From assembly GCA_017881075.1 (NCBI GenBank), contig JADGRH010000006.1:48154-112153 (forward strand): 64,000 nt of DNA. The letters run 5' to 3'. A program made the translations under genes and the position numbers. Within the stretch, counting starts at the first letter, position 1; the number at the start of each line of letters is the position of its first letter. Shown piece after piece: positions 18,743 to 63,981 of the stretch. The notes under the pieces are model-generated. The model had not been told where the DNA came from, did no database searches, and saw nothing but the letters and a program-made list of their open reading frames with translations. This stretch comes from Minisyncoccota bacterium (GTDB taxonomy: Bacteria; Patescibacteriota; Minisyncoccia; Phycocordibacterales; CAJBRS01).

Positions 18743-19825
18743 TTAAAGTTTTGGCAAAGCGAGCCCTATGACAGTGGCGTAGTCTAAGGCGTCATGGTAT
18801 TCGATTGGAGGAATGTAATCGTCAAAAGAAAATCCATTGACCCAGACGTCGGCCACTTCCGCTTCCACTCGAACGCTTTCAGTAATATATTCTTTAAAAC
18901 CAACAATGGAAGCATCTTTACCCGTAAGCAGTATTTTTTTAACCTTTCCTCTGTCATTTTGGACTTTCTCGACATGAGTATGCCAATAAACATGAACTCT
19001 TTCAATTTCATCTTTCAAAGCAGAAGCAACACTAATCAGAGCAAAAAAGAGATCCTTGTTTTCTTTATCTTTAACAAAACCTTTTTCCCGTTTCAATTTT
19101 TTAGCTTGATCGGGAGTGATATTGAATTGTTTGACAATAGCGGAAGTGAAGTCGTCAGCTCCTACCGCTAAAGTAGAGGTAAATTGAACAGCATCATCGC
19201 TCACTATGGCCACTTCGGTTTTAGTATCGTTTATATGAACGATGAGATAAGTATCTCTGTCCCCTTTTTTGATCACCGCCTTAGCAATGGCCTGGGATTC
19301 AATTAAAAAAGAAACCGGAATCAACCCGACTTTATGAAATAACTCTATGTATTCATTCACTACCTGCTTCGGTAGCACTGATACGGTGGCCTCTTTAAAC
19401 GCTACCTCCTTCTTATCTGGGTCCTTTTCAATGACATGATAATCAAAAATGGCCTCCTCAAGAGAGATGGGCACGTTTTCTTCTAAATGAAATTCTATGT
19501 GATTGCAGATCTCGTTTTCGCTTTTGTTTGGAATCTCCATCTTAAAAAGGTAGGACTTCTCTTCCGGCAAAGCGGCTTCAATAAACTTTAGACCGTATTC
19601 TGTTTTTAGATCACGAAGAGCTGATTCCACTTCCTTATTTTCTATTAAGGAAATAGTTGGATTATAGGAGGTTAATTTCTTTTCGGCGAAACGGCCCACT
19701 CGGAAACCATTCTTGACTCTCAAGATCTCTATAAAACGGACGGCTCGAGGAGTAATATTAATACCAATGTATGGGAATTCCAGAAAACGAGGCGGGGGAA
19801 AATAATCAAAAAACTTTTTGCTCAT
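18743..19825 (-). CDS. pilM: type IV pilus assembly ATPase-fold protein PilM
   Basis: 360 aa actin-like fold (YIGINITPRAVRFIEI... N-terminus). Followed by PilN/PilO-like genes. Confidence 0.65.
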   Translation of the reverse strand: MSKKFFDYFPPPRFLEFPYIGINITPRAVRFIEILRVKNGFRVGRFAEKKLTSYNPTISLIENKEVESALRDLKTEYGLKFIEAALPEEKSYLFKMEIPNKSENEICNHIEFHLEENVPISLEEAIFDYHVIEKDPDKKEVAFKEATVSVLPKQVVNEYIELFHKVGLIPVSFLIESQAIAKAVIKKGDRDTYLIVHINDTKTEVAIVSDDAVQFTSTLAVGADDFTSAIVKQFNITPDQAKKLKREKGFVKDKENKDLFFALISVASALKDEIERVHVYWHTHVEKVQNDRGKVKKILLTGKDASIVGFKEYITESVRVEAEVADVWVNGFSFDDYIPPIEYHDALDYATVIGLALPKL

Positions 19826-40920: not shown

Positions 40921-42603
40921 ATGGTCAAATTTAACGAAGACAAACAAAAACGTCGTATAGCCGATCTCTATAAAAGTGAGGAGGAAGAGTTGGCTCAGGT
41001 TCTTTCTAAAAAGTACGACTTGGAATATGTAGACCTCACCAGTATTACCATCAATACCGATGCTCTGCGTATAGTGAAGGAAGAAGAGGCTCGAAAGAGC
41101 CATCTGGCTGTCTTTGACATTGTTAATAAAAAAATCAACGTGGCCATTCAGACCCCCAATAATCCAGACACTGTGACGACACTGGCAGACTTAAAACAAA
41201 AAGGCTACGAGTCAAGAGTTTTTATGACTTCAACTGAGAGTTTAAATAAGGCTTGGGATCGTTATAAGGATCTTTCTTTTGCTTTTGAAACTGCCGCTGG
41301 TTCGTTGGACATTTCTAATGAAGAAATCGAAACTTTTTTGGGTCAGGTACATAAATTACCGGACATTCAAAAACTGATCGTGGAAACTTTGGCCATGAAA
41401 AAGAGTTATCGCGTCTCTCGAGTGTTGGTGATTATTTTAGCCGGCGCTCTTTCTACAAAAGCTTCCGATATTCATATTGAACCGGAAGAGGACCACACCC
41501 GATTGCGTTATAGGCTGGACGGGGTGTTGCTGGATGTCCTTAATTTTGATAATGAAACTTATAATCTTCTGCTTTCTCGAATCAAACTCCTCTCTAATTT
41601 GAAATTAAATATTAAACAGAACGCCCAAGATGGACGCTTTAGTATTAAAGTTCGTGATGATGAGATTGAGGTTCGAACTTCTATTTTGCCCGGCAATTAC
41701 GGTGAGTCTATCGTGTTACGACTTTTGAATCCTAAATCCATCACCGTCCCATTAGAAGAATTGGGGGTGGAGCCGCGCCTCTTTAAAATTCTGGAAGCGG
41801 AAATCAGAAAACCAAACGGCATGATCTTAACTACAGGACCAACCGGTTCCGGCAAGACTACTACTCTCTATTCTTTTATGCGCCGTATCTATAGCCCAGA
41901 AATTAAAATCATTACCATTGAAGATCCAATTGAATACCATTTGTCCGGCATTGTTCAAACCCAAGTTGAGGCTAAAAAGGGTTATACCTTCGTGGCCGGA
42001 TTACGCAGCGCTCTTCGACAAGACCCTGATGTGATAATGGTGGGAGAAATCCGAGATGAAGAGACAGCGGAGATTGCTATTAATTCCAGTCTTACCGGAC
42101 ATTTAGTTTTTTCCACCCTTCACACCAACGACGCCGCCGGTACCTATCCGCGTTTGATAGACCTAGGAATTAACCCGCAAGTTCTTTCGTCGGCAATCAA
42201 TGTCTCTATTGCCCAACGTTTGGTGCGAGTGCTTTGTCCGGCCTGTAAAAAAGAGATTCCGGTGCCGGAAGAGAGAAAAGTGATTTTAGATAAAGTAATA
42301 GGTTCTATCTTTTTGGAAGAAAATAAAGTGGAAGTGAAAACAATTTTTGAGCCGGTGGGTTGCGAGAAATGTAATCATCAGGGGTTTAAAGGCCGTATCG
42401 GTATCTATGAAGCGATCGTTACCGACGCAGCACTCGAAGAAGTAATTAAAATGAATCCGAGCGAGCGAGAGATCCGAAAAGCCACCCGACCGCAAGGAAT
42501 CCTCACTATGGAACAAGACGGCGTACTGAAAGTACTTCGTGGTGTCACCTCCATCTCTGAACTCGAACGTGTCGTCAATTTGGAACAGTATTTGAATCTA
42601 TAA
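40921..42603 (+). CDS. pilB: type IV pilus assembly ATPase PilB / GspE-family secretion ATPase
   Basis: Walker A TTGPTGSGKTTTLYS, Asp box, His box, tetracysteine motif CPACK...CEKCN; 560 aa. Confidence 0.9.
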   Translation: MVKFNEDKQKRRIADLYKSEEEELAQVLSKKYDLEYVDLTSITINTDALRIVKEEEARKSHLAVFDIVNKKINVAIQTPNNPDTVTTLADLKQKGYESRVFMTSTESLNKAWDRYKDLSFAFETAAGSLDISNEEIETFLGQVHKLPDIQKLIVETLAMKKSYRVSRVLVIILAGALSTKASDIHIEPEEDHTRLRYRLDGVLLDVLNFDNETYNLLLSRIKLLSNLKLNIKQNAQDGRFSIKVRDDEIEVRTSILPGNYGESIVLRLLNPKSITVPLEELGVEPRLFKILEAEIRKPNGMILTTGPTGSGKTTTLYSFMRRIYSPEIKIITIEDPIEYHLSGIVQTQVEAKKGYTFVAGLRSALRQDPDVIMVGEIRDEETAEIAINSSLTGHLVFSTLHTNDAAGTYPRLIDLGINPQVLSSAINVSIAQRLVRVLCPACKKEIPVPEERKVILDKVIGSIFLEENKVEVKTIFEPVGCEKCNHQGFKGRIGIYEAIVTDAALEEVIKMNPSEREIRKATRPQGILTMEQDGVLKVLRGVTSISELERVVNLEQYLNL

Positions 42604-54179: not shown

Positions 54180-54905
54180 ATGATTGAACACTTCTTTAAA
54201 CCTCTTTTTTATACCCCGCTCTACAACGGACTAATTTTTTTAATTTCCGTTTTACCGGGAGCCAACGTTGGCTTAGCGGTAATTATTTTTACCATCTTAG
54301 TGAAATTAGTTTTGTACCCCCTGACCAAAAGCTCCGTTATCACTCAAGCCAAAATGAAGAAACTTGAGCCGGAACTGGCGGCTTTACGCAAGAAATATGA
54401 AAAAGATAAACAGGAGCAAGCAAAACAAGTCATGGCATTTTACAAAGAAAATAATGTCAATCCTTTCTCCGGTATATGGCTTCTTTTAATCCAAACCCCC
54501 ATTATTTTAAGCCTTTATTACATCTTTTTGAGGGGGGGTCTACCAAACATCAGCACCGATCTGCTTTATCCTTTCATTCATGTTCCGGCGGCCATAAGTA
54601 TGCATTTCTTGGGAATGGATATGGGCAAGCCAAGCATTATCTTGGGAGCTATAGCAGCAATAACTCAATTTTTTCAAATCAGACTTTCAGTGCCAGCTTA
54701 TAAAAAACCGGAGGGTAATGAGCCGGCCTCATTTAAAAATGATCTGGCTCGTAGTATGAATATGCAATTTCGATACGTTCTGCCGATTTTTATTTTTATT
54801 ATCGCCTTGAAAGTTTCCGGTGCTGTCGCTCTCTACTGGATCACCAGCAATCTTTTTATTATCGGACAGGAACTAATCGTCAGAAAAAAGTTTAAGAAGG
54901 GTTAA
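54180..54905 (+). CDS. yidC: membrane protein insertase YidC/Oxa1 family (short form)
   Basis: Five TM helices with a conserved LYPF / NPFSGIWLLLIQ-like core; 241 aa. Confidence 0.85.
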   Translation: MIEHFFKPLFYTPLYNGLIFLISVLPGANVGLAVIIFTILVKLVLYPLTKSSVITQAKMKKLEPELAALRKKYEKDKQEQAKQVMAFYKENNVNPFSGIWLLLIQTPIILSLYYIFLRGGLPNISTDLLYPFIHVPAAISMHFLGMDMGKPSIILGAIAAITQFFQIRLSVPAYKKPEGNEPASFKNDLARSMNMQFRYVLPIFIFIIALKVSGAVALYWITSNLFIIGQELIVRKKFKKG

Positions 54906-56404
54906 CGTAAAATCGTACTTCTCACTGAAGTAGAGGTGGTAGCAGTAGTTGTGGCCGTTGAAGTTGCTGTGGTACTTGTCGACGTTAATGGAGCGGGTGG
55001 CACAGGCGGAGTGATCAAAAGATTCCACAAAGTAAGATCTTTTTTGTTGGTGAACATCAGATAATTTTCATTTGGGTCAAGTGTGAGGTTGGTTGCATCC
55101 ATACTTACTCTGGTTAACTGATTTGGTTGAGCAACCAAAGTCCTGTCTCCTGTTCTTACATTTATCTTCCAAATATTATCCGTAAAAGAAACTGCTCCCT
55201 GATACCAAACATCAGGATAGCTTCCTGATGGAACAGCTAAAGGCACAGCGCAATAGACGACAGCTGTCATTTTTTCGCTCCAGATACATTTTTCAGGAAG
55301 AGTTTTGAGGGAAACTCCCGAGCTTAGACCATTGGCTGGAGTATAGACGTTCAAACTAAAGTTAGAACCATTATTAGCCGAATAAAGGATGGAGGTTAGA
55401 TCCGGAGAAGGCAAAACAGTCAGTCCGGCCACATTTCCAAAAATTTTAGTGAATGTCCCGGCATTAACATTGAGAGAAAAAAGATAACCAGCCACTCCTC
55501 CCGAAGGCTTGGTGGTGAGAAAGATTGTATTAGTACCTGACCAATTAACCAACCATTCTTTAAGAGGATTGGTAAATATTTGTTTTTTTGAGGTGTTGTC
55601 GGGAAGGGCAATTACTCCAGTTGATCCCAGAGCAGTATTTTGCAGATAAAAAATTCGATCTTTTGCCGGCGAAATGGCTAAACTAAACAGATTTGGAGGT
55701 AAAATCGATCCAACCAATTGATATGTTGTGGTTGAGGTAGCTATGACAGCAGGTGTCGATGTCGCCTTGGTTGAAGTAGCTTGCCCCGAGCTTGTCGAGG
55801 GGCTAGTGGTTGCAACTTTAGGCAAGACTAAATTAGCATAATAAGTTTCAATAGTGTTTTCATCAGTGTCTAAATAACGATAGAGGATAGCAGTACCCCC
55901 CTTAACAAATGAAGCGTCATATATTTTAGGAATAGTTGTATTTGAAATTTCTATACTACTTAAAACTTCCGGCTTGGTTTCAAAAATGTGTCCGGTGGCA
56001 CGTTCAACATAACGAATGAAGGTTGTTGGAACCAAAATAGTTTTTAAAACTCCTTTAGTTAATGTGCTGGTGGCGACAACTCTACTCATAAAAGTTGCGC
56101 CAGCAGTTGGAGTATTAGAAACCTGACGCAAGCGTGGAATAGTCACGGACTCTCCATTGTCTGCTTGGATATTTACGGTAGGAGAAGTGGTAGTTCCTGC
56201 TGTTCCGGAATTATTATTAGTGCCTCGAAAGATAGAAAAGAAACCGCCGAAAGGATTACTTTGAGCTCCTCCATTTCCAGCAAGTTTATTAGAGCCGAGT
56301 GATAGGTACCCAATCACTAGAATAACAAGGAGGAGAATACAGACGCAGGCTATAATTGTGTAGAGTATTTTTCGCGACATATCTATTGATGACAAGTGGA
56401 ACAA
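54902..56404 (-). CDS. secreted/anchored Thr/Ser-rich beta-rich protein
   Basis: N-terminal TM anchor, Thr-rich linkers (TSTSTTATSTATTTATTSTS) and repeated beta-strand segments. Adjacent to the T4SS-like genes. Confidence 0.45.
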   Translation of the reverse strand: MFHLSSIDMSRKILYTIIACVCILLLVILVIGYLSLGSNKLAGNGGAQSNPFGGFFSIFRGTNNNSGTAGTTTSPTVNIQADNGESVTIPRLRQVSNTPTAGATFMSRVVATSTLTKGVLKTILVPTTFIRYVERATGHIFETKPEVLSSIEISNTTIPKIYDASFVKGGTAILYRYLDTDENTIETYYANLVLPKVATTSPSTSSGQATSTKATSTPAVIATSTTTYQLVGSILPPNLFSLAISPAKDRIFYLQNTALGSTGVIALPDNTSKKQIFTNPLKEWLVNWSGTNTIFLTTKPSGGVAGYLFSLNVNAGTFTKIFGNVAGLTVLPSPDLTSILYSANNGSNFSLNVYTPANGLSSGVSLKTLPEKCIWSEKMTAVVYCAVPLAVPSGSYPDVWYQGAVSFTDNIWKINVRTGDRTLVAQPNQLTRVSMDATNLTLDPNENYLMFTNKKDLTLWNLLITPPVPPAPLTSTSTTATSTATTTATTSTSVRSTILR

Positions 56405-57417
56405 GTTCCGTAAAAAGTAAAAGTAATATTATGACTTTGATTTATGTTGTTGTTATTACCAGGTGACCATAACCCAAGAGCATTTGCCGCCGCCGGCGAC
56501 ATCTCTCCCCAACCAGTTGCCCCATTATCTCCCGCTACCGCCATTATTGATCGAGGGGGTTGGGCGGTGTTATCAGTGATCAATACCGGTGTGCCCATAG
56601 GAATACCAGAGTTGCTTGGTACGGCAACGTAAGGAACATTAAAGGCATCTAAACTATGTCCATTTGGCTGATAAGATGTACCTGATGTCCAGGTGCTGTC
56701 CCAACCAGGATTATTTCCTCCATCAGTATCCAAGGCCACATTGTTTGCCTGATGGGGCATACCATTTACCACATTCCCATTTGGATCAATAAAATAAGAA
56801 CTGCTTCCATCCACCGGATTCACACCAGTGTAGCCATTATTATAATCCGTATATGTTCCATCACTCTCGTTACGTATCTGTGCTACCCCACTATCTCCTC
56901 CAGCAAGCCCGACTGGCGTAACTCCACTCCCAGTAGGAGCTTGTCCTCGCGGATTATTCAGACTGTCAGCTGTAACATTCACTCCTCCAATATTCGGCTC
57001 GGTGTTAAGTAGTTGTGGGTTGATAGTATTTAAGAGGAGATATGCTCCCAAGGCAATCAACAATCCCCACAAAGCCGAAGTAATTTTATCCTTTCCATCC
57101 TCTTTGCCCCCAATAGCATCGGTAGACATATATTTAATACCTCCCAAGACAATCATGACAACGGCCAGACCCGTGGCAATGGCCACCCCCAGTCGGAACA
57201 AGCCATTTAAATAACCAGTTAGATTATCAGATGTAGTAGAGGGTAAATATCCTGTTATAGGAGCGAGAGGAACATACGGAGTACCACCAACTGCCGAAGC
57301 ATTGCCGGAAGCCCCGATTCCAGCGGCCGATACAATAAATGGAAGAAAAATAAATAAAAAAAGGGATAAATAAACCAAACCCGTCAACGATAATTTTTTG
57401 AATTTAGAAGGTAACAT
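56383..57417 (-). CDS. VirB2/TrbC-like T4SS pilin with long Gly/Asn/Thr-rich C-terminal extension
   Basis: Long signal-like N-terminus, then two hydrophobic segments LGVAIATGLAVVMIVLGGIKYM and ITSALWGLLIALGAYLLLNTI, matching TrbC/VirB2 topology. 344 aa is much longer than canonical pilins. Confidence 0.45.
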   Translation of the reverse strand: MLPSKFKKLSLTGLVYLSLFLFIFLPFIVSAAGIGASGNASAVGGTPYVPLAPITGYLPSTTSDNLTGYLNGLFRLGVAIATGLAVVMIVLGGIKYMSTDAIGGKEDGKDKITSALWGLLIALGAYLLLNTINPQLLNTEPNIGGVNVTADSLNNPRGQAPTGSGVTPVGLAGGDSGVAQIRNESDGTYTDYNNGYTGVNPVDGSSSYFIDPNGNVVNGMPHQANNVALDTDGGNNPGWDSTWTSGTSYQPNGHSLDAFNVPYVAVPSNSGIPMGTPVLITDNTAQPPRSIMAVAGDNGATGWGEMSPAAANALGLWSPGNNNNINQSHNITFTFYGTCSTCHQ

Positions 57418-58447
57418 TGTTGCTTAATCCAAAACTAATCATTAAATTATTCGCCGCTTCCTGAAGAAAAGTTAAATTACTCAAAACATCTGTTGAAATT
57501 AAAGATTGCCCTTCAACTATACCATCCGGTTTTCGAAAAACGACACTATTCTGATTTGCTGACAATGTGTTAATCGAACTATTATTAATAGCCCACTGGT
57601 ATTTTAGTGAGGAAGAAGACGGACTATTAGTAGAAAAATAATAAGGATAGGCGCTTAATTTGAATTCAGTCTCTTTTAGAGCAAACTGATCTCGGAGGGC
57701 GTTATTGAACAACACACCGTACAGTGGATTATTTTCATAAAGTAAAACTTGAGGATTAACAGAGCCGACCGATATCGCACCTTCTCCCACCACCTCGTTC
57801 TTTATAGAATTGGCTTTTACTGAAATATTGACCGGGTGATTCAAAACATCACCACTCACCGTCAAAGTATTTTTGCCATAGCCAGAGCGATCCCCCAAAA
57901 TTTCATCATCCTGACTCCATGTGTAGATAAGATTTTGCGGACTGATCCTTACTCCGTTTAGGACTAAATTTGGTAAAGCCACAAAAGTCAGATTTCCTTC
58001 CGGCTGGTGTAGTTTCTTTCCATTATAAAAAGGTGGAACATATGAATCGGCTTCCCAAACAAGGTCAATATTTCCAGGATTGATCACTACTCTCTTGGTG
58101 ATCTTAATCCCATTAACTGGCAAGATTAAAATAGTGATATCCGAGACTGAGCCAATTTTGCCAGTATTAAAATTATATGTAATTATACCGACTCCACTCT
58201 GCGAAACCTTGTTATTTAAAAGCCAGGAAATAGTAGCCCTGTTTAAGTCGGTGCCAAAGGCCTCTAAACTGATTGAAACGTTTTGATTAGGCCCAGGATT
58301 CTCCGGGTTTACATGCACGCTAATTTGCTCTTCAAATCCCGGAATAAGGCTGGGAATAGAGGGGATATCATATTGGGCCAAGGCGCGAGACACCAAAAAA
58401 GAGAAGAAAAAAAGGACGCTTACAATAATTAACAAAATTCTTTTCAT
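57404..58447 (-). CDS. secreted hypothetical protein
   Basis: Signal peptide, 347 aa, beta-rich. Part of the same minus-strand operon as the VirB4 genes. Confidence 0.45.
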   Translation of the reverse strand: MKRILLIIVSVLFFFSFLVSRALAQYDIPSIPSLIPGFEEQISVHVNPENPGPNQNVSISLEAFGTDLNRATISWLLNNKVSQSGVGIITYNFNTGKIGSVSDITILILPVNGIKITKRVVINPGNIDLVWEADSYVPPFYNGKKLHQPEGNLTFVALPNLVLNGVRISPQNLIYTWSQDDEILGDRSGYGKNTLTVSGDVLNHPVNISVKANSIKNEVVGEGAISVGSVNPQVLLYENNPLYGVLFNNALRDQFALKETEFKLSAYPYYFSTNSPSSSSLKYQWAINNSSINTLSANQNSVVFRKPDGIVEGQSLISTDVLSNLTFLQEAANNLMISFGLSNNVTF

Positions 58448-58497
58448 TATTTAAATTATATAACTTATAGCCAAATCTGCCACTAAGCGGCCTCGCG

Positions 58498-59055
58498 CTA
58501 ATCTTCTCTCGGTGCTCTAATGTCATTCATCGACTGTGGCCGATTATTGAAATTCGGCCGGACGATGTTGTTGGAGCCTCCTCTAACATCTTCTGTACTC
58601 ACCGATCGATTGAGATCTGGCCGCACCCTCGACTGAGTTGTTTGAGGTCGCGGACCACTTAAATTACTTCCGCCTATTTTTGAACCAGGCACTCTTGCGG
58701 CAATATTTTGCAAATTTGTTCTAACATGATTAACACTTCTGACTGTCATTATCACACTGACTGTCCAAGCGAACCAACTGGTAAAAGGAATAAAACCCAA
58801 AGCAATTCCTAACCAAAAAGACATTGCTCTTTTGGTGCTAGAAAAAGTTACTCCTTTTGTCTTAAACCAAACATAAAATGTTAAACTAGCCAGCACATTA
58901 ATCAAAAATTCAAGCATTAATCCAACACCGGTTCCTATAATGGGAATTAACATAATCAAATCAGCAATGGCTTCAAGAACGTCAAAAAAAATAGAGACAG
59001 GAATCATCAGCCATAGGGTTGCTGAAGAAATTTGGGGGTTTCGATTTGGCTCCAT
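58498..59055 (-). CDS. polytopic membrane protein, possibly T4SS-associated
   Basis: Four TM helices in the first 110 aa, polar Arg/Asn-rich C-terminal tail. Confidence 0.4.
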   Translation of the reverse strand: MEPNRNPQISSATLWLMIPVSIFFDVLEAIADLIMLIPIIGTGVGLMLEFLINVLASLTFYVWFKTKGVTFSSTKRAMSFWLGIALGFIPFTSWFAWTVSVIMTVRSVNHVRTNLQNIAARVPGSKIGGSNLSGPRPQTTQSRVRPDLNRSVSTEDVRGGSNNIVRPNFNNRPQSMNDIRAPRED

Positions 59056-59060
59056 TTCTT

Positions 59061-60878
59061 TTAGGCCTGTCCTTCCTCCAGATCTTTTCGAGCTTGTTTA
59101 ATAGCGAGAAGTTGGTGTGGGTCGGAAGTGATGATCTGGTCTTCGGTGTAGGATGCGATCACTTTAATAGCTACGTGTTTTAGTCCGGCAAAAAAGATTC
59201 CCTCTCCGACGTCTGATTCCAATAATAAATATTTTTCTTCCTCGGTCAGGTTAAAAGTTTTCTGAACGATATCAATAGAGGATGGAGATTGTTTCATCAA
59301 CATTTGAATAGAAGAGTTGGTGATAATTGGCACGCCGTACTGGGATTTCAAAAAGTCTTCAACGTCTTGAGTGATGGTGGCGAGGCCGAGATAATATTTT
59401 CGGCCTCGCTTGGCAAGACCTAAAAGAAAGGAGGCTGTGTCTTCGGATTTCATCATCCACCAGGCCTCATCAATCACCAAAAGCCGTTTTTTCAATTGTT
59501 TTCTGATGGCATTCCAAATGAAGTGGGTGACAATATACATAGCCACCGGTTTTAATTCGTCTTCCATGTCTCGAATGGAAAAGACCACGAATTTTTTATT
59601 TATATCTACATTTGTAGGACGATTGATAAATCCGGACCACGACCCCTTCGTATATTTAGTCAGTCTTTGCACTAACGATTCCCCTCCTTCCATACCGGCA
59701 AGCACCAATTCAAAGTCGGAAAGAAGCGGCGGCTCAACGTCAGCAAAGTTGGCTTCAGGAGTAATGTCTTTTAAGGCGTAAGTTTCGGTAATGGCCCGGT
59801 CAATGATGGAGTCTTCCTCCGGAGTCAGTCCTCCCAACATGATTCGAAAGAGTCCAACAAGATTGACCGTGTTTGAACGCAAAACATCTGCCTGCGATTC
59901 ATCCTCACGGGCTATCGGCAGATCAAATGGATTAATATGATTATCGGAAGTGAGGGAAATATTGAAATAACGTCCGCCGGTAGCTTCTACAAGATATTCG
60001 TACTCTCGTTCAGGGTCGATCACCAACACGTCGGTATCAAACATCAATGAGCGCAGAATTTCCAGTTTAGTGAAATATGATTTTCCCGATCCGGCTTTGG
60101 CAAAGGTGACAGAATTGTAGTTTTCCAATGAAAAACGATCAAAGAGAATTAAACTTGAGTTGTGGCGATTAATGCCGTAAAGAATTCCTTTGTCAGAAGT
60201 TAAGTCAAAAGAAATAAATGGAAAAAGACTTGATAGTGGAGAAGAATTCAGTTTTGAACGAACTTCTAAAAGATCGGTAGAAATTGGCAGAATACTTTTA
60301 TATCCCTGCTCTTGTTGAAAAAGGGCTGGCTTCACATACACAAGGCTCGCTTCCAAAATAGATTTAATTTCCGATTCGGTTTTATCCAACTCCCCCTCAT
60401 CTTCTCCGTAAATAGACATATAAAGACCTACGTCAAAAATTCTCTCCTGGGCTTGTTGAAGATTGTCCCGGAGTTGTTCAAGATCCTGATAAGCAGTATC
60501 TAAGATCGGATCACGGACAAGACCTTTTTCTTCTCGAGTGGAAATCTGGCTTTGAACTTCGGCTACCTTCTTTTGGAATTGGCGTAGGATGGTGGCAGTT
60601 TCAATTGGATGAATGAAAATAGAAATATCAAAAACCTTGTCCAAATTGATAATAGGAGCAAACCAGGAGTCTCCTAAAAATCTCGGATAAGAAATGACGA
60701 AAAAAGTGCGCACTACCTTGTCCCCCAGATTCATTTCGCGGGGGGTGATTTTTAGAGCCGATGGAGCAATAATGTCTTTCAGCTCCAAAACTCCTGCCTG
60801 GTATATCTCCTGAGGCAGAATAGAAGTAATCTTTGACAACTCCTTCTTTTTTGGTTTAAAAAGGTCTAAAAGAGCCAT
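59061..60878 (-). CDS. virB4: VirB4/TrbE-family type IV secretion ATPase, C-terminal two thirds
   Basis: Walker A FAKAGSGKSYFT, Walker B LLVIDEAWWMM, LGLATITQ motif; 605 aa. Lacks the N-terminal domain, which is encoded by the preceding ORF in another frame. Confidence 0.8.
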   Translation of the reverse strand: MALLDLFKPKKKELSKITSILPQEIYQAGVLELKDIIAPSALKITPREMNLGDKVVRTFFVISYPRFLGDSWFAPIINLDKVFDISIFIHPIETATILRQFQKKVAEVQSQISTREEKGLVRDPILDTAYQDLEQLRDNLQQAQERIFDVGLYMSIYGEDEGELDKTESEIKSILEASLVYVKPALFQQEQGYKSILPISTDLLEVRSKLNSSPLSSLFPFISFDLTSDKGILYGINRHNSSLILFDRFSLENYNSVTFAKAGSGKSYFTKLEILRSLMFDTDVLVIDPEREYEYLVEATGGRYFNISLTSDNHINPFDLPIAREDESQADVLRSNTVNLVGLFRIMLGGLTPEEDSIIDRAITETYALKDITPEANFADVEPPLLSDFELVLAGMEGGESLVQRLTKYTKGSWSGFINRPTNVDINKKFVVFSIRDMEDELKPVAMYIVTHFIWNAIRKQLKKRLLVIDEAWWMMKSEDTASFLLGLAKRGRKYYLGLATITQDVEDFLKSQYGVPIITNSSIQMLMKQSPSSIDIVQKTFNLTEEEKYLLLESDVGEGIFFAGLKHVAIKVIASYTEDQIITSDPHQLLAIKQARKDLEEGQA

Positions 60879-60894
60879 GAAAGTATTATATCAC

Positions 60895-61533
60895 TTAAGA
60901 TAGGGCTATTGGCTTCTCCGTGTCTCCCGGATTGAAGATCTTATAGAACAATTCAATCAATTCTTCGGTGCCAAGCTGGACGATACGAATGCCGCAGCGA
61001 ACCAGGCCCTGCTCTACCACATCAACTCTCTGCTCGAGTTGGGTGCGATGTTCTTCAAAATCGTGCCCAGCTTCCTCTGCCATTTCTCCTTCCGTTCTTT
61101 TCTTTTTCATAAAATTACCGAAGCCTTTTTTAGCCTGTAAAATAGCCGGAGTAAAAGGAATGACTACGAAGAAACTTTTAGACATTATATTAGAGTTGTC
61201 GGTAAAGTTTTTAATAAACTCTATGTATTCATGAGTCTGGATCTTCATCAAATCAATTGTTTGTTCTTTCTCGGTCTGCTCCAAGAGGGCAATATAAGGT
61301 CGAATATTAAGCTTTCTTGACTCAATAAAGATTTGAATGGAAAAATTTAGAGAGTTGAGAAAGTTTTGGAATTGGAAGATGATTGAAGTTTGTTCGTCTT
61401 GGGATTTAAGAGCGAAGTTCAGGGAAGAGGTCATAATAATAGAGCGAAGAGAGCCATCTTTTAAGACGATCACTCCGTCTCGGATCTCTTTGATCGGTAC
61501 AAACTCTTGAGTTGCTTTGGAAATTGTAGCCAT
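60895..61533 (-). CDS. virB4: VirB4-family N-terminal domain (separate ORF)
   Basis: FVPIKEIRDGVIVLKDGSLRSIIMTSSLNFALKSQDEQTSIIFQFQNFLNSL resembles the N-terminus of Gram-positive-type VirB4 proteins. Stop TAA at 60895-60897 is followed 16 nt later by the ATG of the ATPase ORF in the +1 frame. Confidence 0.5.
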   Translation of the reverse strand: MATISKATQEFVPIKEIRDGVIVLKDGSLRSIIMTSSLNFALKSQDEQTSIIFQFQNFLNSLNFSIQIFIESRKLNIRPYIALLEQTEKEQTIDLMKIQTHEYIEFIKNFTDNSNIMSKSFFVVIPFTPAILQAKKGFGNFMKKKRTEGEMAEEAGHDFEEHRTQLEQRVDVVEQGLVRCGIRIVQLGTEELIELFYKIFNPGDTEKPIALS

Positions 61534-61541
61534 TCCCTTAA

Positions 61542-61988
61542 TTATACACCAGTTCTTTGTTCTCTCTGAAATTTCTTGGTTTCCTGTGAGTAAATAGTAT
61601 CGTTTATATCAAGGCTCCAGGTCAGATCCTTTAGTTTGCTTTCCGATAATTTAGGAATATAGATAGGATTTATTGGTTTTATCAACTGCTCCATAGTATG
61701 AGGAGTCCTATCCACTTTTTTCCAGATATAGAGCTTGTTGCCAATAACATAACGAAAAGCCGACTCCATTATTTTTACAAAAGGGCGATTATTAACCTTA
61801 TAAAATGCTAAAGCGGCGACCAGTCCTAAGATCGGAATAATAAAAAAGAGAGCAATGATAAGAGGAAAAAATTTATAAAAAACATAAGAGAGGCCAGCTC
61901 CGCCGGCCAGATATATAAATTGCTTGAAGGTCAACGGACCAAAGATCTTGTCCTCTACTTCTATGAATTGTGGAACTTGGAATCGCAT
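61542..61988 (-). CDS. VirB3/PrgI-like small membrane protein
   Basis: 148 aa with two adjacent TM helices (FIYLAGGAGLSYVFYKFFPLIIALFFIIPILGLVAALAFY), immediately upstream of the VirB4 N-terminal-domain ORF, as in conjugative T4SS operons. Confidence 0.45.
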   Translation of the reverse strand: MRFQVPQFIEVEDKIFGPLTFKQFIYLAGGAGLSYVFYKFFPLIIALFFIIPILGLVAALAFYKVNNRPFVKIMESAFRYVIGNKLYIWKKVDRTPHTMEQLIKPINPIYIPKLSESKLKDLTWSLDINDTIYSQETKKFQREQRTGV

Positions 61989-62366
61989 TTATCTTTTGCC
62001 TCCGTGCGCTAACTCTCCGCAGAGCTTATTAACTACACCACTCTGCATAGCTATTTTATCAAATGTAGCCTGGTCAAGGTAGCCTAGATCCCTAGCAATC
62101 AGAATATAATTTTGAATTTCTCGCACTGATTTAAGGGCGAATGAATAGAATTGAACTTTTTCCTTGAAGACTTTTCGACCAAAACCTTCAACGATATTAG
62201 AAGTGATAGCCAGAGCCGATCTTTTTATCTGACTGGTCAATCCATATACCTCTGTCGGCGAAAAATTTTTAGTAGCCTGAAATATTTCCAATACCAATTG
62301 ATGTCCTTCCTGCCAGGCAGGGAGTTCTGTAAAAGATTTGATCTGACCTATTTTAATTTCACTCAT
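61989..62366 (-). CDS. four-helix-bundle protein (23S rRNA intervening-sequence protein family)
   Basis: 125 aa all-helical ORF with LTSQIKRSALAITSNIVEGFGR pattern typical of the TIGR02436 family. Confidence 0.65.
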   Translation of the reverse strand: MSEIKIGQIKSFTELPAWQEGHQLVLEIFQATKNFSPTEVYGLTSQIKRSALAITSNIVEGFGRKVFKEKVQFYSFALKSVREIQNYILIARDLGYLDQATFDKIAMQSGVVNKLCGELAHGGKR

Positions 62367-62396: not shown

Positions 62397-63146
62397 TTAA
62401 TTGGCTGGTTCGCGATATGGATCAACCACCGAGGATTTTACCGCCTCTGCCGGCAATTTTACACTAATCTCTTTTTTGGGTGCCGTTACCACTTTAGTCA
62501 ATTTATCATCCACAAAACTTTTCTCCTCCTTCCTAATTCCTAATTCTTGATCCCTAACACCTACTTCCTGACTCCTCTCCTTCTCCGCTCTCCTCAAATC
62601 ATCCAAATGCTTCGATTCAGTCATTACCTGCATATCTCGGTCCCTCAATTTCTCACTAATATTAGAAAGTCCACTTGAACGGATGGGCATTCTGATAGGT
62701 TGGGAAGGTTGCTCAATCTCTCGAAGCAGTGCCTCCTTGTTCGCTGAAACATCCCCCCCTTCGCCCGGATTCTTCATCGTTGGTCCAGCATTTATTCTTA
62801 CCGGCTCATCCACCTCTTCCTCCTCCCCCGCGTATGTTTCCTTTAATGAGTCTTTAATATCTTTTAAGATAGACTCATTAACGTCATCGGAAATACTTCT
62901 TGCCTCATCGCGGGTAAGTCGCAACTCTCTCTCAATATTTTCCAGGTAGTTTTTGGTTGGCTCAAGCTCAAGCATTACCAAAAATGTTTCTGTTTCCAAA
63001 GCATTAGCCTGATCAATATGAAGATTATGTTTTCTAGAAATGGTACTAAATTTTTCAGCTAGATTAGCAGAAGTAATAGCCTCCTGCACTCTTTTTGGCA
63101 GTCTGCTGTATGCTTCCTGAATTAATTTTTTTGATTCGGGGCCCAT
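62397..63146 (-). CDS. hypothetical charged protein
   Basis: 249 aa Glu/Lys/Arg-rich ORF, no recognisable domain. Confidence 0.4.
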   Translation of the reverse strand: MGPESKKLIQEAYSRLPKRVQEAITSANLAEKFSTISRKHNLHIDQANALETETFLVMLELEPTKNYLENIERELRLTRDEARSISDDVNESILKDIKDSLKETYAGEEEEVDEPVRINAGPTMKNPGEGGDVSANKEALLREIEQPSQPIRMPIRSSGLSNISEKLRDRDMQVMTESKHLDDLRRAEKERSQEVGVRDQELGIRKEEKSFVDDKLTKVVTAPKKEISVKLPAEAVKSSVVDPYREPAN

Positions 63147-63171
63147 TTTTATCGAAAATTATAACTAATCT

Positions 63172-63981
63172 TTATTTCTTACTTTCTTCAACATCATCTG
63201 CCACTCCTTTTATTTCTTCCTCTAAATGTTCAATTCCAGATTCGGTTTTCTTCTCTCCCTTTTCTAACTCATCTAAAACTTCTTTAAAATCGTCAATTCT
63301 TCTTTCTTTTTTACTCTTACTCATATCCACTCTAATCTTATTAATCTCTTGTTTTGGAGCGAAGACGCCAAGATTATAAACACTCGGCCTCTCTTTTTCT
63401 GATAGATAGGCATGCTTTCGAACATCTCCTGCATCTTTTGCATCTTGTTTGACTCGGCTAATCTTGTCCGCTGCTTTGTCCATTACTCTGCTAACTTGTT
63501 TAAATTTCTCTACGTTTGCTTTCTCTGTGTCTGACAACTTATCTATGGAACCTCTTAACTCATCGCGCTCACTGTTAATATTTCTCAAACTCCTCTCAAG
63601 TCGAGATTTATCCGCTGCTGCTTTTCTTAACTCTTCATCGGCTAAACTTTTTGCCTCAGGATCCTTATTTAAAATAGCCTGCAAGGAAGCTTCAGAGTGT
63701 TTAGTCATTCTTGCTTCTACCGCCTGTAGTGCCTTTTCATCCTTTCCAGCTTTGACGTCTATTTCATGACTTCTAACTGCAAGGGGTTTAGTTTTTTCCT
63801 TGTCCTCAAATGGAATAGCTTCTCTTTCTGCTTTTTTATCTCCTTCCTCTTTTACAGCACCAGCAATCTTTGCCAGCTCTTCGCTTGATGCCCGTGCCTG
63901 CCTCTTAGACGCTTCAATCAAAGCCTTCTCTCTTCTTTCCGTAATCTTTTCATATCCTCCCGTGCCTGCCGCTTGACCCAT
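63172..63981 (-). CDS. hypothetical coiled-coil protein
   Basis: 269 aa, heptad-like Lys/Glu/Ala-rich sequence. Confidence 0.4.
   Translation of the reverse strand: MGQAAGTGGYEKITERREKALIEASKRQARASSEELAKIAGAVKEEGDKKAEREAIPFEDKEKTKPLAVRSHEIDVKAGKDEKALQAVEARMTKHSEASLQAILNKDPEAKSLADEELRKAAADKSRLERSLRNINSERDELRGSIDKLSDTEKANVEKFKQVSRVMDKAADKISRVKQDAKDAGDVRKHAYLSEKERPSVYNLGVFAPKQEINKIRVDMSKSKKERRIDDFKEVLDELEKGEKKTESGIEHLEEEIKGVADDVEESKK

Follow-up and report, generated by a model that had tools for sequence, protein, structure and literature searches.

According to the ORF listing of the 64-kb window (the whole stretch of DNA that was analysed), seven open reading frames on the minus strand constitute one operon at 54902-61988, with the coordinates and lengths that an earlier sequence-only reading had given. 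The first gene (61542..61988; minus strand, as are all that follow) codes for a small PrgI/VirB3-like membrane protein of 148 aa. It is followed by the gene for a TrsD-like protein of 212 aa (60895..61533), a free-standing N-terminal VirB4 module, and, after an intergenic spacer of 16 nt that contains TGATATAAT (60879..60894), by that for a VirB4-family ATPase of 605 aa (59061..60878) which is without the first ~180 residues of a full-length VirB4. Further downstream are encoded a small membrane protein of 185 aa (58498..59055), in which three to four hydrophobic segments and a polar C-terminal tail were recognised by eye, a predicted secreted protein of 347 aa (57404..58447), whose N-terminal hydrophobic segment reads as signal-like, a protein of 344 aa (56383..57417) that combines a VirB2-like pilin with a GH75 chitosanase-like domain as judged by Pfam, AF2 and Foldseek, and a membrane-anchored extracytoplasmic protein which has 500 aa when started from a TTG codon (54902..56404). 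TATAAT boxes occur just 5' of three of the start codons; we record this as a mere observation, as the promoter/terminator scan returned 28 sites compared to a shuffled expectation of 21.4 +/- 3.5, which is not clearly above it.

The nearest relatives are metagenome-assembled genomes of Paceibacteria. Related loci were found by a genome scan, with a closer alignment set (A2), and 81 loci entered the synteny comparison. Across these, the gene order PrgI-TrsD-VirB4-(TM)-347-pilin-500-yidC-dnaA-dnaN is kept, and the operon has a fixed position in the related species examined, between housekeeping genes on one side and yidC-rnpA-dnaA-dnaN on the other; the start of dnaA lies ~1.3 kb past the operon end. 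The GC content of the operon is similar to that of its surroundings. The other genes of the window are housekeeping genes (Pfam-scanned ORFs, with the genes of the origin region named via the annotated context in the relatives). The Pfam scan also located the type IV pilus gene PilM at 18743-19825 and a PilB-type T2SSE ATPase at 40921-42603, which has an MshEN domain and is not a VirB11. A relaxase and a coupling protein (T4CP), already said to be absent from the window, were not detected by Pfam among the scanned ORFs of at least 240 aa within the 64-kb window.

This setting bears on the possibility that the operon belongs to an integrated conjugative element, with its relaxase and coupling protein encoded outside the window and DNA transfer retained. 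The VirB4, TrsD and PrgI proteins are closest to the MPF-FATA conjugation machinery of monoderms (PMC12102498), and our view is limited to 64 kb of the genome. However, the operon occupies a fixed chromosomal position among housekeeping genes in the related species examined and has a GC content like that of its surroundings, and the Pfam scan found no integrase among the scanned ORFs of the window, which are also those that yielded neither relaxase nor T4CP. In addition, a survey from 2025 counted relaxases in only 103 Patescibacteria genomes compared to 2,474 virB4 genes, and rarely near virB4 (PMC12102498); according to the same study, VirD4-like genes are located far from virB4 in many Patescibacteria. 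We consider a conjugative element to be very unlikely.

The two genes adjacent to the PrgI homologue had been described as a VirB4 N-terminal-domain ORF and a VirB4 ATPase ORF, and this description is corroborated by complementary matches to the VirB4 model of the CD1110 family (NCBIfam) and by the predicted fold of the shorter protein. The alignment places the break between model positions 2-136, which correspond to residues 9-141 of the 212-residue protein, and positions 184-733, which correspond to residues 30-570 of the 605-residue protein, and together they account for one VirB4 model with no overlap and nothing lost. The 605-residue protein passes the curated cutoff of this model (378.6 bits, cutoff 325), has Pfam matches to P-loop_TraG (E 4e-25) as well as AAA_10 and DUF87, with a full-length match to the P-loop ATPase domain, and is related to TrsE of pSK41 (BLASTP 3e-30). 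The 212-residue protein, by comparison, is matched by VirB4 models in their N-terminal parts only (Pfam/NCBIfam). Its AF2 model (pLDDT 90.5) is predicted to adopt the fold of the N-terminal domain of R388 TrwK/VirB4, as the top 14 Foldseek matches in the PDB are all to this protein (probability 1.0, TMq 0.54-0.61). The VirB3-like assignment of the first gene was also confirmed, as the 148-residue protein passes the cutoff for Pfam PrgI (E 3e-10, 40.9 bits, cutoff 27); in 80 of the 81 related loci, the gene of a homologue directly precedes that of the TrsD-like protein.

We term the 212-residue protein “TrsD-like” on the basis of its position and its apparent remote homology, and place it outside the curated staphylococcal TrsD family, since the NCBIfam TrsD model (NF041427) scores only 23.1 bits (E 5.3e-5) where its cutoff is 200, and since hhalign of the family against pSK41 TrsD gives a probability of 48% (E 1.9e-4, 172 columns). 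The protein has more than 7,894 homologues, which are stand-alone proteins of similar length (about 210-220 aa) and fall into 2,368 clusters at 50% identity; the best 120 homologues are all 209-222 aa long and have PF26593 (“TraC-like”) as their precomputed Pfam domain. A database entry that is 100% identical to the 212-residue protein carries this domain too; a look-up by exact sequence returned no record.

At the junction, the sequence reads ...TCT TAA gtgatataatactttc ATG, and the ORFs that flank the 16-nt gap differ in frame, just as had been described. The sequence-only reading treated this split as an oddity and offered three explanations, a genuine two-subunit VirB4, a frameshift that requires recoding, and a pseudogene, and it named a single-base correction as the sign of a sequencing artefact. 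Only the first of the three holds. Two separate ORFs (a TrsD-like one ending at a stop codon, then VirB4) are found in all 80 related loci where this could be measured. The split is a conserved two-gene arrangement of a TrsD-like protein and an ATPase, and not a frameshift, a sequencing error or a pseudogene; the organisation is ancestral and has already been published (PMC12102498).

A decaying pseudogene, left from a T4SS that is being lost, might be suspected in a reduced genome which has no relaxase or T4CP nearby and an ATPase without its N-terminus. Yet in every related species that was examined, both ORFs are intact, and protein identity among the related loci is 60-83% for the TrsD-like protein and 78-92% for VirB4 despite saturated synonymous sites. 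For the comparison to the closest relative we thus give only dN (0.13 for the TrsD-like gene, 0.06 for virB4) and no dN/dS ratio, as dS is saturated. The P-loop ATPase domain is full-length and above its curated cutoff, and in Southlakia the homologues of these genes are essential (PMC10633639). Decay can be excluded, as the ORFs are intact everywhere and the proteins are conserved while synonymous sites are saturated; its probability is negligible.

The short gap and the different frames in the window could also be taken to reflect programmed ribosomal frameshifting, or another form of recoding, by which the two ORFs would yield a full-length VirB4. However, there is no conserved slippery site. 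Across the relatives, the gap ranges from -4 to ~500 nt, the loci divide into 17, 37 and 26 with relative frames of 0, +1 and +2, respectively, and the stop codon of the TrsD-like gene may be TAA, TAG or TGA. At one extreme, the two ORFs share a 4-nt ATGA overlap, while the longest junction, of ~500 nt, holds another gene; IVP genes are positioned between the two ORFs in the related loci L021 and L080. Furthermore, the VirB4 ORFs of the relatives have an ATG as their start codon, whose place in the alignment is that of residue 1 or of residues 10-11 of VirB4 from the window. Recoding is excluded on the grounds that gap, frame and stop codon vary and that a whole gene lies between the ORFs in some relatives, and we assign it practically no weight. 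A rare relative (P0179, 797 aa) in the same genomic context has both parts fused, joined by a linker of ~10 residues.

A sequencing or assembly error, where a single-base indel in a homopolymer has split one virB4 gene of 817 codons, would fit two adjacent ORFs in different frames with the summed length of a normal VirB4, but is extremely improbable and can be excluded, as no single-base indel fuses the ORFs and as 80 of 80 independently assembled loci keep two, as do thousands of metagenomic proteins. The proposed correction to a single ORF of 817 aa does not exist: when all single-base insertions and deletions within ~130 nt on each side of the junction were tried, the longest read-through was 222 aa. 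A single indel cannot suffice, since the spacer holds a separate stop codon for each frame, that of the VirB4 frame being a TGA.

The 344-residue protein had been read as a VirB2/TrbC-like pilin with a 200-residue Gly/Asn/Thr-rich extension. The former part of this claim stands, while the extension turned out to be a linker and a predicted folded domain. Residues 63-131 match Pfam T4SS_pilin with 24.3 bits (E 3.4e-5), just under the gathering cutoff of 26.6, and among 60 syntenic homologues T4SS_pilin matches 51 and TrbC/VirB2 matches 4. The pilin module consists of a signal peptide and a helical hairpin (residues ~46-140), the latter with two helices at 66-98 and 105-132 in the AF2 model. The model continues with a disordered linker (residues 144-173) and a well-folded beta domain (residues 178-340, pLDDT ~90). 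In a Foldseek search of the PDB, the V-Csn GH75 chitosanase ranks on top (E 7.5e-6, probability 1.0), with a modest TM score (TMt 0.38), and MltA comes next, and a profile of the C-domain retrieves V-Csn from PDB sequences at E 1e-5. A GD...GE motif aligns with the positions mutated in the V-Csn entries D148N and E157Q, and the Asp and Glu concerned, predicted to be catalytic, are invariant in 7 homologues. Pfam, tested on the isolated C-domain and on its closest homologues, has no match for it, GH75 included. On the strength of the predicted structure and of the profile match at E 1e-5, we interpret the C-terminus as a GH75 chitosanase-like double-psi beta-barrel and a predicted enzyme.

This domain is not a constant part of the pilin. 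In 60 genomes with VirB4 proteins that are ~80% identical, those parts of the pilin that follow the membrane module make up 31 clusters without detectable mutual similarity, and in related genomes the domain is replaced by SLT, NlpC/P60, YkuD, VanY or dozens of unassigned folds. We tentatively raise the possibility, which we hold with clearly less than even confidence, that the syntenic pilin is a conserved VirB2-like module displaying an exchangeable extracellular C-domain, which may be a fast-evolving, host-specific determinant for breaching the envelope or for adhesion. We met no description of an exchangeable pilin C-domain in the literature searched.

Three other proteins are conserved by position. 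Of 75 loci, 63 have an ORF of 93-403 aa between virB4 and the gene for the 347-residue protein, and 62 of these ORFs contain one or more hydrophobic segments. The sequences are very divergent (16% mean column identity in alignment A5) and the family has no sequence match in Pfam or the PDB; its 185-residue member is, by position only, a candidate channel or VirB6-like component. Of the 81 loci, 75 encode a homologue of the 347-residue protein in synteny (28-52% identity), and the family alignment has a conserved Trp/Gly/Pro pattern; its only match in the PDB is an insignificant one of immunoglobulin type (E 0.016). For the 500-residue protein, a syntenic homologue exists in 60 of 81 loci. As its Met9 is invariant in alignment A8, a start at the ATG at 56380 (492 aa) is more likely than one at the TTG. 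Neither the protein nor its family has a consistent Pfam match, and a weak match of the family profile to TolB in the PDB (E 1.9e-4) suggests that it possibly contains a TolB-like beta-propeller.

Taken together, the region is very probably a chromosomal, origin-proximal T4SS-like operon as is typical of Patescibacteria (class Paceibacteria), in which VirB4 consists of two polypeptides by design and which serves as a housekeeping system for a host-dependent lifestyle, not for conjugation. The TrsD-like protein would supply the first half of the N-terminal domain of VirB4, and the 605-residue protein the rest of this domain and the ATPase. By analogy to single-chain VirB4, the two may assemble non-covalently and, with the PrgI/VirB3-like protein, form a membrane-docked motor that would power assembly or secretion of the VirB2-like pilin. 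The extracellular GH75-like hydrolase of the latter probably cuts cell-wall or envelope polysaccharide, either of its own cell or of the host. A T4SS-like cluster with a non-conjugative role in host interaction had been proposed from the outset, and this agrees with our evidence and with the literature (PMC12102498, PMC10633639), where T4SS genes have been found to be essential for epibiotic growth of the saccharibacterium Southlakia epibionticum (Wang et al. 2023, PMC10633639; PMC12857230).

The operon type has already been described for Patescibacteria, and the region adds little beyond the publications from 2023-2025, being a further instance of a system that is regarded as central to host-dependent life in a very large bacterial radiation. 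For annotation, it follows that pairs of a TrsD-like protein and a short VirB4 in Patescibacteria should neither be flagged as frameshift or pseudogene nor be merged. Details beyond PMC12102498 are the positionally conserved small TM, 347-residue and ~490-residue proteins as well as the GH75-like domain on the pilin and its variability. The variable, pilin-anchored C-domain is the only part that might repay follow-up; for knowledge of the ultra-small, host-dependent Patescibacteria, it might give a clue to the way in which the envelope of a host is opened or recognised by these cells.

Compared to the T4SS of the Patescibacteria clade (PMC12102498, PMC10633639), the operon shows no essential difference. 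These systems have TrsD beside virB4, a PrgI/VirB3-like protein and VirB2-like pilins, have no relaxase and are found near dnaA (Quinonero-Coronel et al. 2025, PMC12102498), and the operon shares with them the TrsD homologue next to virB4, PrgI/VirB3, a VirB2-like pilin and the lack of a relaxase or T4CP nearby. Its location near dnaA, dnaN and rnpA is also that reported for Paceibacteria. The trs/tra operon of the staphylococcal plasmids pGO1/pSK41 has the same order, trsC-trsD-trsE, with the VirB3-like gene first; in pSK41, a TrsD of 227 aa is followed, after a 14-nt gap, by a VirB4-like ATPase of 672 aa. The relationship of the TrsD-like protein to pSK41 TrsD is remote (16% identity). On the pSK41 plasmid there are also genes for a relaxase, a VirD4-like T4CP, a topoisomerase and a CHAP hydrolase, whereas the operon in the window is chromosomal and without DNA-processing genes. 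In R388 TrwK (PDB 7O43, 8RTD), the N-terminal region has the fold predicted for the 212-residue protein, and the 605-residue protein corresponds to the remainder of VirB4 models; TrwK is a single chain, whereas the N-terminal module in the window is a separate polypeptide, and identity is only 14-16%. Finally, the viral GH75 chitosanase V-Csn (PDB 7TVL-7TVP) has the fold predicted for the pilin C-domain, along with the GD...GE catalytic motif and a DxDG motif, but in the operon described here the GH75-like domain is fused to the membrane hairpin of a T4SS pilin.

A virB4 gene that appears broken in the window proved to be the real and normal state of this locus and not an anomaly. All seven minus-strand ORFs of the sequence-only reading were found where it had placed them, with labels backed by family scans: a 148 aa PrgI-like protein (61542-61988), whose match exceeds the Pfam gathering cutoff; a 212 aa TrsD-like protein (60895-61533), previously taken as a VirB4 N-terminal-domain ORF; a 605 aa VirB4 ATPase (59061-60878), which matches P-loop_TraG, AAA_10 and DUF87 in Pfam and reaches 378.6 bits with the CD1110-family VirB4 model of NCBIfam (cutoff 325); a small transmembrane protein of 185 aa (58498-59055); a 347 aa secreted protein (57404-58447); a 344 aa pilin (56383-57417) with a Pfam T4SS_pilin match at residues 63-131; and a 500 aa protein (54902-56404). 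Downstream of the operon end lie yidC and then rnpA, dnaA and dnaN, so that the operon adjoins the replication origin. Outside the operon, the window holds housekeeping genes and type IV pilus genes, namely those for PilM (18743-19825, minus strand) and for a T2SSE ATPase of PilB type that has an MshEN domain (40921-42603, plus strand) and is not to be mistaken for VirB11. No relaxase, coupling protein or VirB11 was found among the ORFs scanned in the 64 kb window, as had been claimed.

The junction was reproduced in the window sequence as ...TCT TAA gtgatataatactttc ATG, a gap of 16 nt between ORFs in different frames. With the 212 aa ORF as query, more than 7,894 significant proteins were retrieved, the best 120 of which are all 209-222 aa long and 66-100% identical; all belong to Patescibacteria/Paceibacterota, and their precomputed domain is PF26593 ‘TraC-like’. 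When representatives of clusters at 50% identity were searched exhaustively, 2,368 clusters matched; nearly all of the best 150 are 160-440 aa, with disordered tails on the longer ones, and exactly one of these 150 is a fused protein (797 aa). Among the related loci (80 species-representative loci plus L001, thus 81), the junction could be read and was measured in 80, and in every case the TrsD-like ORF closes at a stop codon (TAA 49, TAG 19, TGA 12), with VirB4 next in an ORF of its own. The gap ranges from a 4 nt ATGA overlap up to about 500 nt, the relative frames are distributed 37/26/17, and two loci (L021 and L080) have a complete 23S-rRNA-IVP-family gene between the two ORFs.

Of the three readings that had been offered for the split, only a genuine VirB4 in two ORFs stands. 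A one-base correction restoring a single VirB4 ORF had been named as the sign of an artefact, and none was obtained: with single-base indels within ~130 nt on each side of the junction, the longest read-through was 222 aa, because every frame carries its own stop in the spacer. In a comparison with L002, the nearest relative, the 212 aa gene has a dN of 0.13 and virB4 one of 0.06, with synonymous sites saturated; both genes evolve under strong purifying selection. The split conserved in 80 of 80 loci, the variable gaps, frames and stops, the failed indel trial and the low dN together exclude sequencing error, programmed recoding and pseudogenisation.

Within VirB4 models, matches of the 212 aa protein are confined to the N-terminal part (positions 2-136 of CD1110 and 8-172 of VirB4_CagE); it also has a weak match to the TrsD model of NCBIfam. 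Its AlphaFold2 model, built on 65 homologues, has a pLDDT of 90.5, and the 14 best PDB matches are TrwK/VirB4 chains of the R388 T4SS (probability 1.0, TMq 0.54-0.61). The 212 aa and 605 aa ORFs tile a full-length VirB4 model with no overlap and no loss. Placing the break against an intact VirB4, as had been proposed, was achieved with the rare fused relative P0179 (797 aa, locus L083, 544-2937): its residues 6-214 align to the 212 aa protein and 225-797 to residues 28-603 of the 605 aa protein, so that the break falls in a non-conserved linker of ~10 residues. The fused gene has the same PrgI...yidC-rnpA-dnaA context, in a shorter cluster that is without the 347 aa, pilin and ~490 aa genes. 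One relative (L013) has a rearranged operon, with the PrgI-like gene located downstream of virB4 and the distal genes in inverted orientation; despite this, the TrsD-like gene and virB4 remain neighbours, about 500 nt apart.

In 63 of 75 loci, the interval from virB4 to the 347 aa gene contains an ORF (93-403 aa), which has one or more hydrophobic segments in 62 of these loci; the sequences were too divergent for a family to be assigned, and by position only the protein is a candidate channel component. The 347 aa protein and the ~490 aa membrane-anchored protein are syntenic throughout the relatives; the sole match of the former is immunoglobulin-like and insignificant, and that of the latter is a weak one to a TolB-like beta-propeller. 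The 500 aa ORF probably starts at the ATG at 56380 rather than the listed TTG at 56404, as the corresponding Met9 is invariant in the family alignment (31 homologues); this start leaves a 2 nt gap behind the pilin stop codon.

The PrgI-like gene is directly adjoined by a gene (61989-62366, minus strand) of the 23S-rRNA-intervening-sequence-protein family (PF05635, E 3e-29). Genes of this family occupy various intergenic sites of the same operon in relatives (L021 10716-11063, L080 9718-10077, L032, L042, L043), some of them between the TrsD-like gene and virB4, and this diversity of sites suggests repeated, independent insertion. Three genes, all on the minus strand, have a perfect TATAAT hexamer 7-9 nt 5' of their ATG: the TrsD-like gene (61542-61547), virB4 (60884-60892, as TGATATAAT) and the 347 aa gene (58456-58461). 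No Shine-Dalgarno is visible ahead of these three genes, and the pattern may point to internal transcripts that are leaderless or have a short leader. A generic promoter scan gave a result not clearly over chance. Upstream of the operon are two ORFs of 249 and 269 aa (62397-63981, minus strand) that are rich in Glu and Lys, highly charged and without a Pfam family, and both GC skew (-0.28) and AT skew (-0.24) are strongly negative in the last 2 kb of the window.

In the AlphaFold2 model of the pilin, a signal peptide is followed by a VirB2 hairpin made of two long helices (66-98, 105-132), which bears out the two-TM topology expected for a VirB2. A disordered linker (144-173) leads to a beta domain (178-340, pLDDT about 90) for which V-Csn, a viral chitosanase of family GH75, ranks first in the PDB (E 7.5e-6, probability 1.0); matches to double-psi beta-barrel proteins are much weaker (MltA E 0.06, aspartate decarboxylase E at least 0.16). 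V-Csn was also found by a sequence profile of the domain (E 1e-5), which aligns its invariant GDNGATG-GE to GDVGPSSKIGE of V-Csn. From the 9-residue spacing of its Asp and Glu, we take the latter motif as the probable site of the residues exchanged in the D148N and E157Q structures deposited for V-Csn. The C-terminal half of the gene (56383-56900) would thus encode a putative GH75 chitosanase-like domain with conserved, putatively catalytic Asp and Glu and, as the pilin topology puts the C-terminus outside the cell, a putative glycosidase that is exposed and anchored to the membrane or the pilus. Of 60 syntenic pilin genes, only 4 have this domain. C-terminal regions of at least 60 aa are present in 56 of the 60 (related loci L001-L081) and fall into 31 clusters with zero BLAST similarity between them; database relatives carry SLT, NlpC/P60, YkuD or VanY domains in its place. 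As a lead rather than a result, the pilin gene may be a conserved anchor bearing an exchangeable extracellular domain. No description of such modularity was found in the literature looked at, and these variable domains are the only potentially new element, a modest side lead.

Our data establish which genes make up the operon, that a two-gene VirB4 is conserved and which fold its N-terminal module has. In R388, cryo-EM work reportedly identified the VirB4 N-terminal domain as the part contacting VirB3 and the membrane. By analogy, the TrsD-like protein would dock on the 605 aa ATPase and the PrgI-like protein, remaking a complete VirB4 at the membrane, and this motor might power pilin assembly or secretion, perhaps of other substrates too.

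The same layout occurs in the staphylococcal plasmid pSK41, where a VirB3-like gene is followed by trsD (227 aa), a 14 nt gap and a 672 aa VirB4-like ATPase. The window VirB4 aligns to this ATPase at 3e-30; the 212 aa family aligns to TrsD of pSK41 over 172 columns (E 1.9e-4, probability 48%), a remote homology that lies under the curated TrsD cutoff. In Patescibacteria, a survey of T4SS genes (Quinonero-Coronel et al. 2025, PMC12102498) reported TrsD encoded beside virB4, homologues of PrgI/VirB3, pilins of the VirB2 kind (uncommon among monoderm systems), a near absence of relaxases and, in Paceibacteria, T4SS genes close to dnaA, dnaN and rnpA. Wang et al. 2023 (PMC10633639) used Tn-seq to show that Southlakia epibionticum needs its T4SS cluster, pilins included, for epibiotic growth; no relaxase or coupling protein is recognisable in this cluster. 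This result is restated in a 2025 review (PMC12857230), and a 2026 preprint describes tubular structures, possibly T4SS pili, linking a cultivated member of the radiation to its host. From this literature, host interaction or macromolecule exchange would be a likelier role than conjugation. The apparent anomaly is the conserved TrsD plus VirB4 architecture of a T4SS already described in Patescibacteria, of which the window operon is one more instance.
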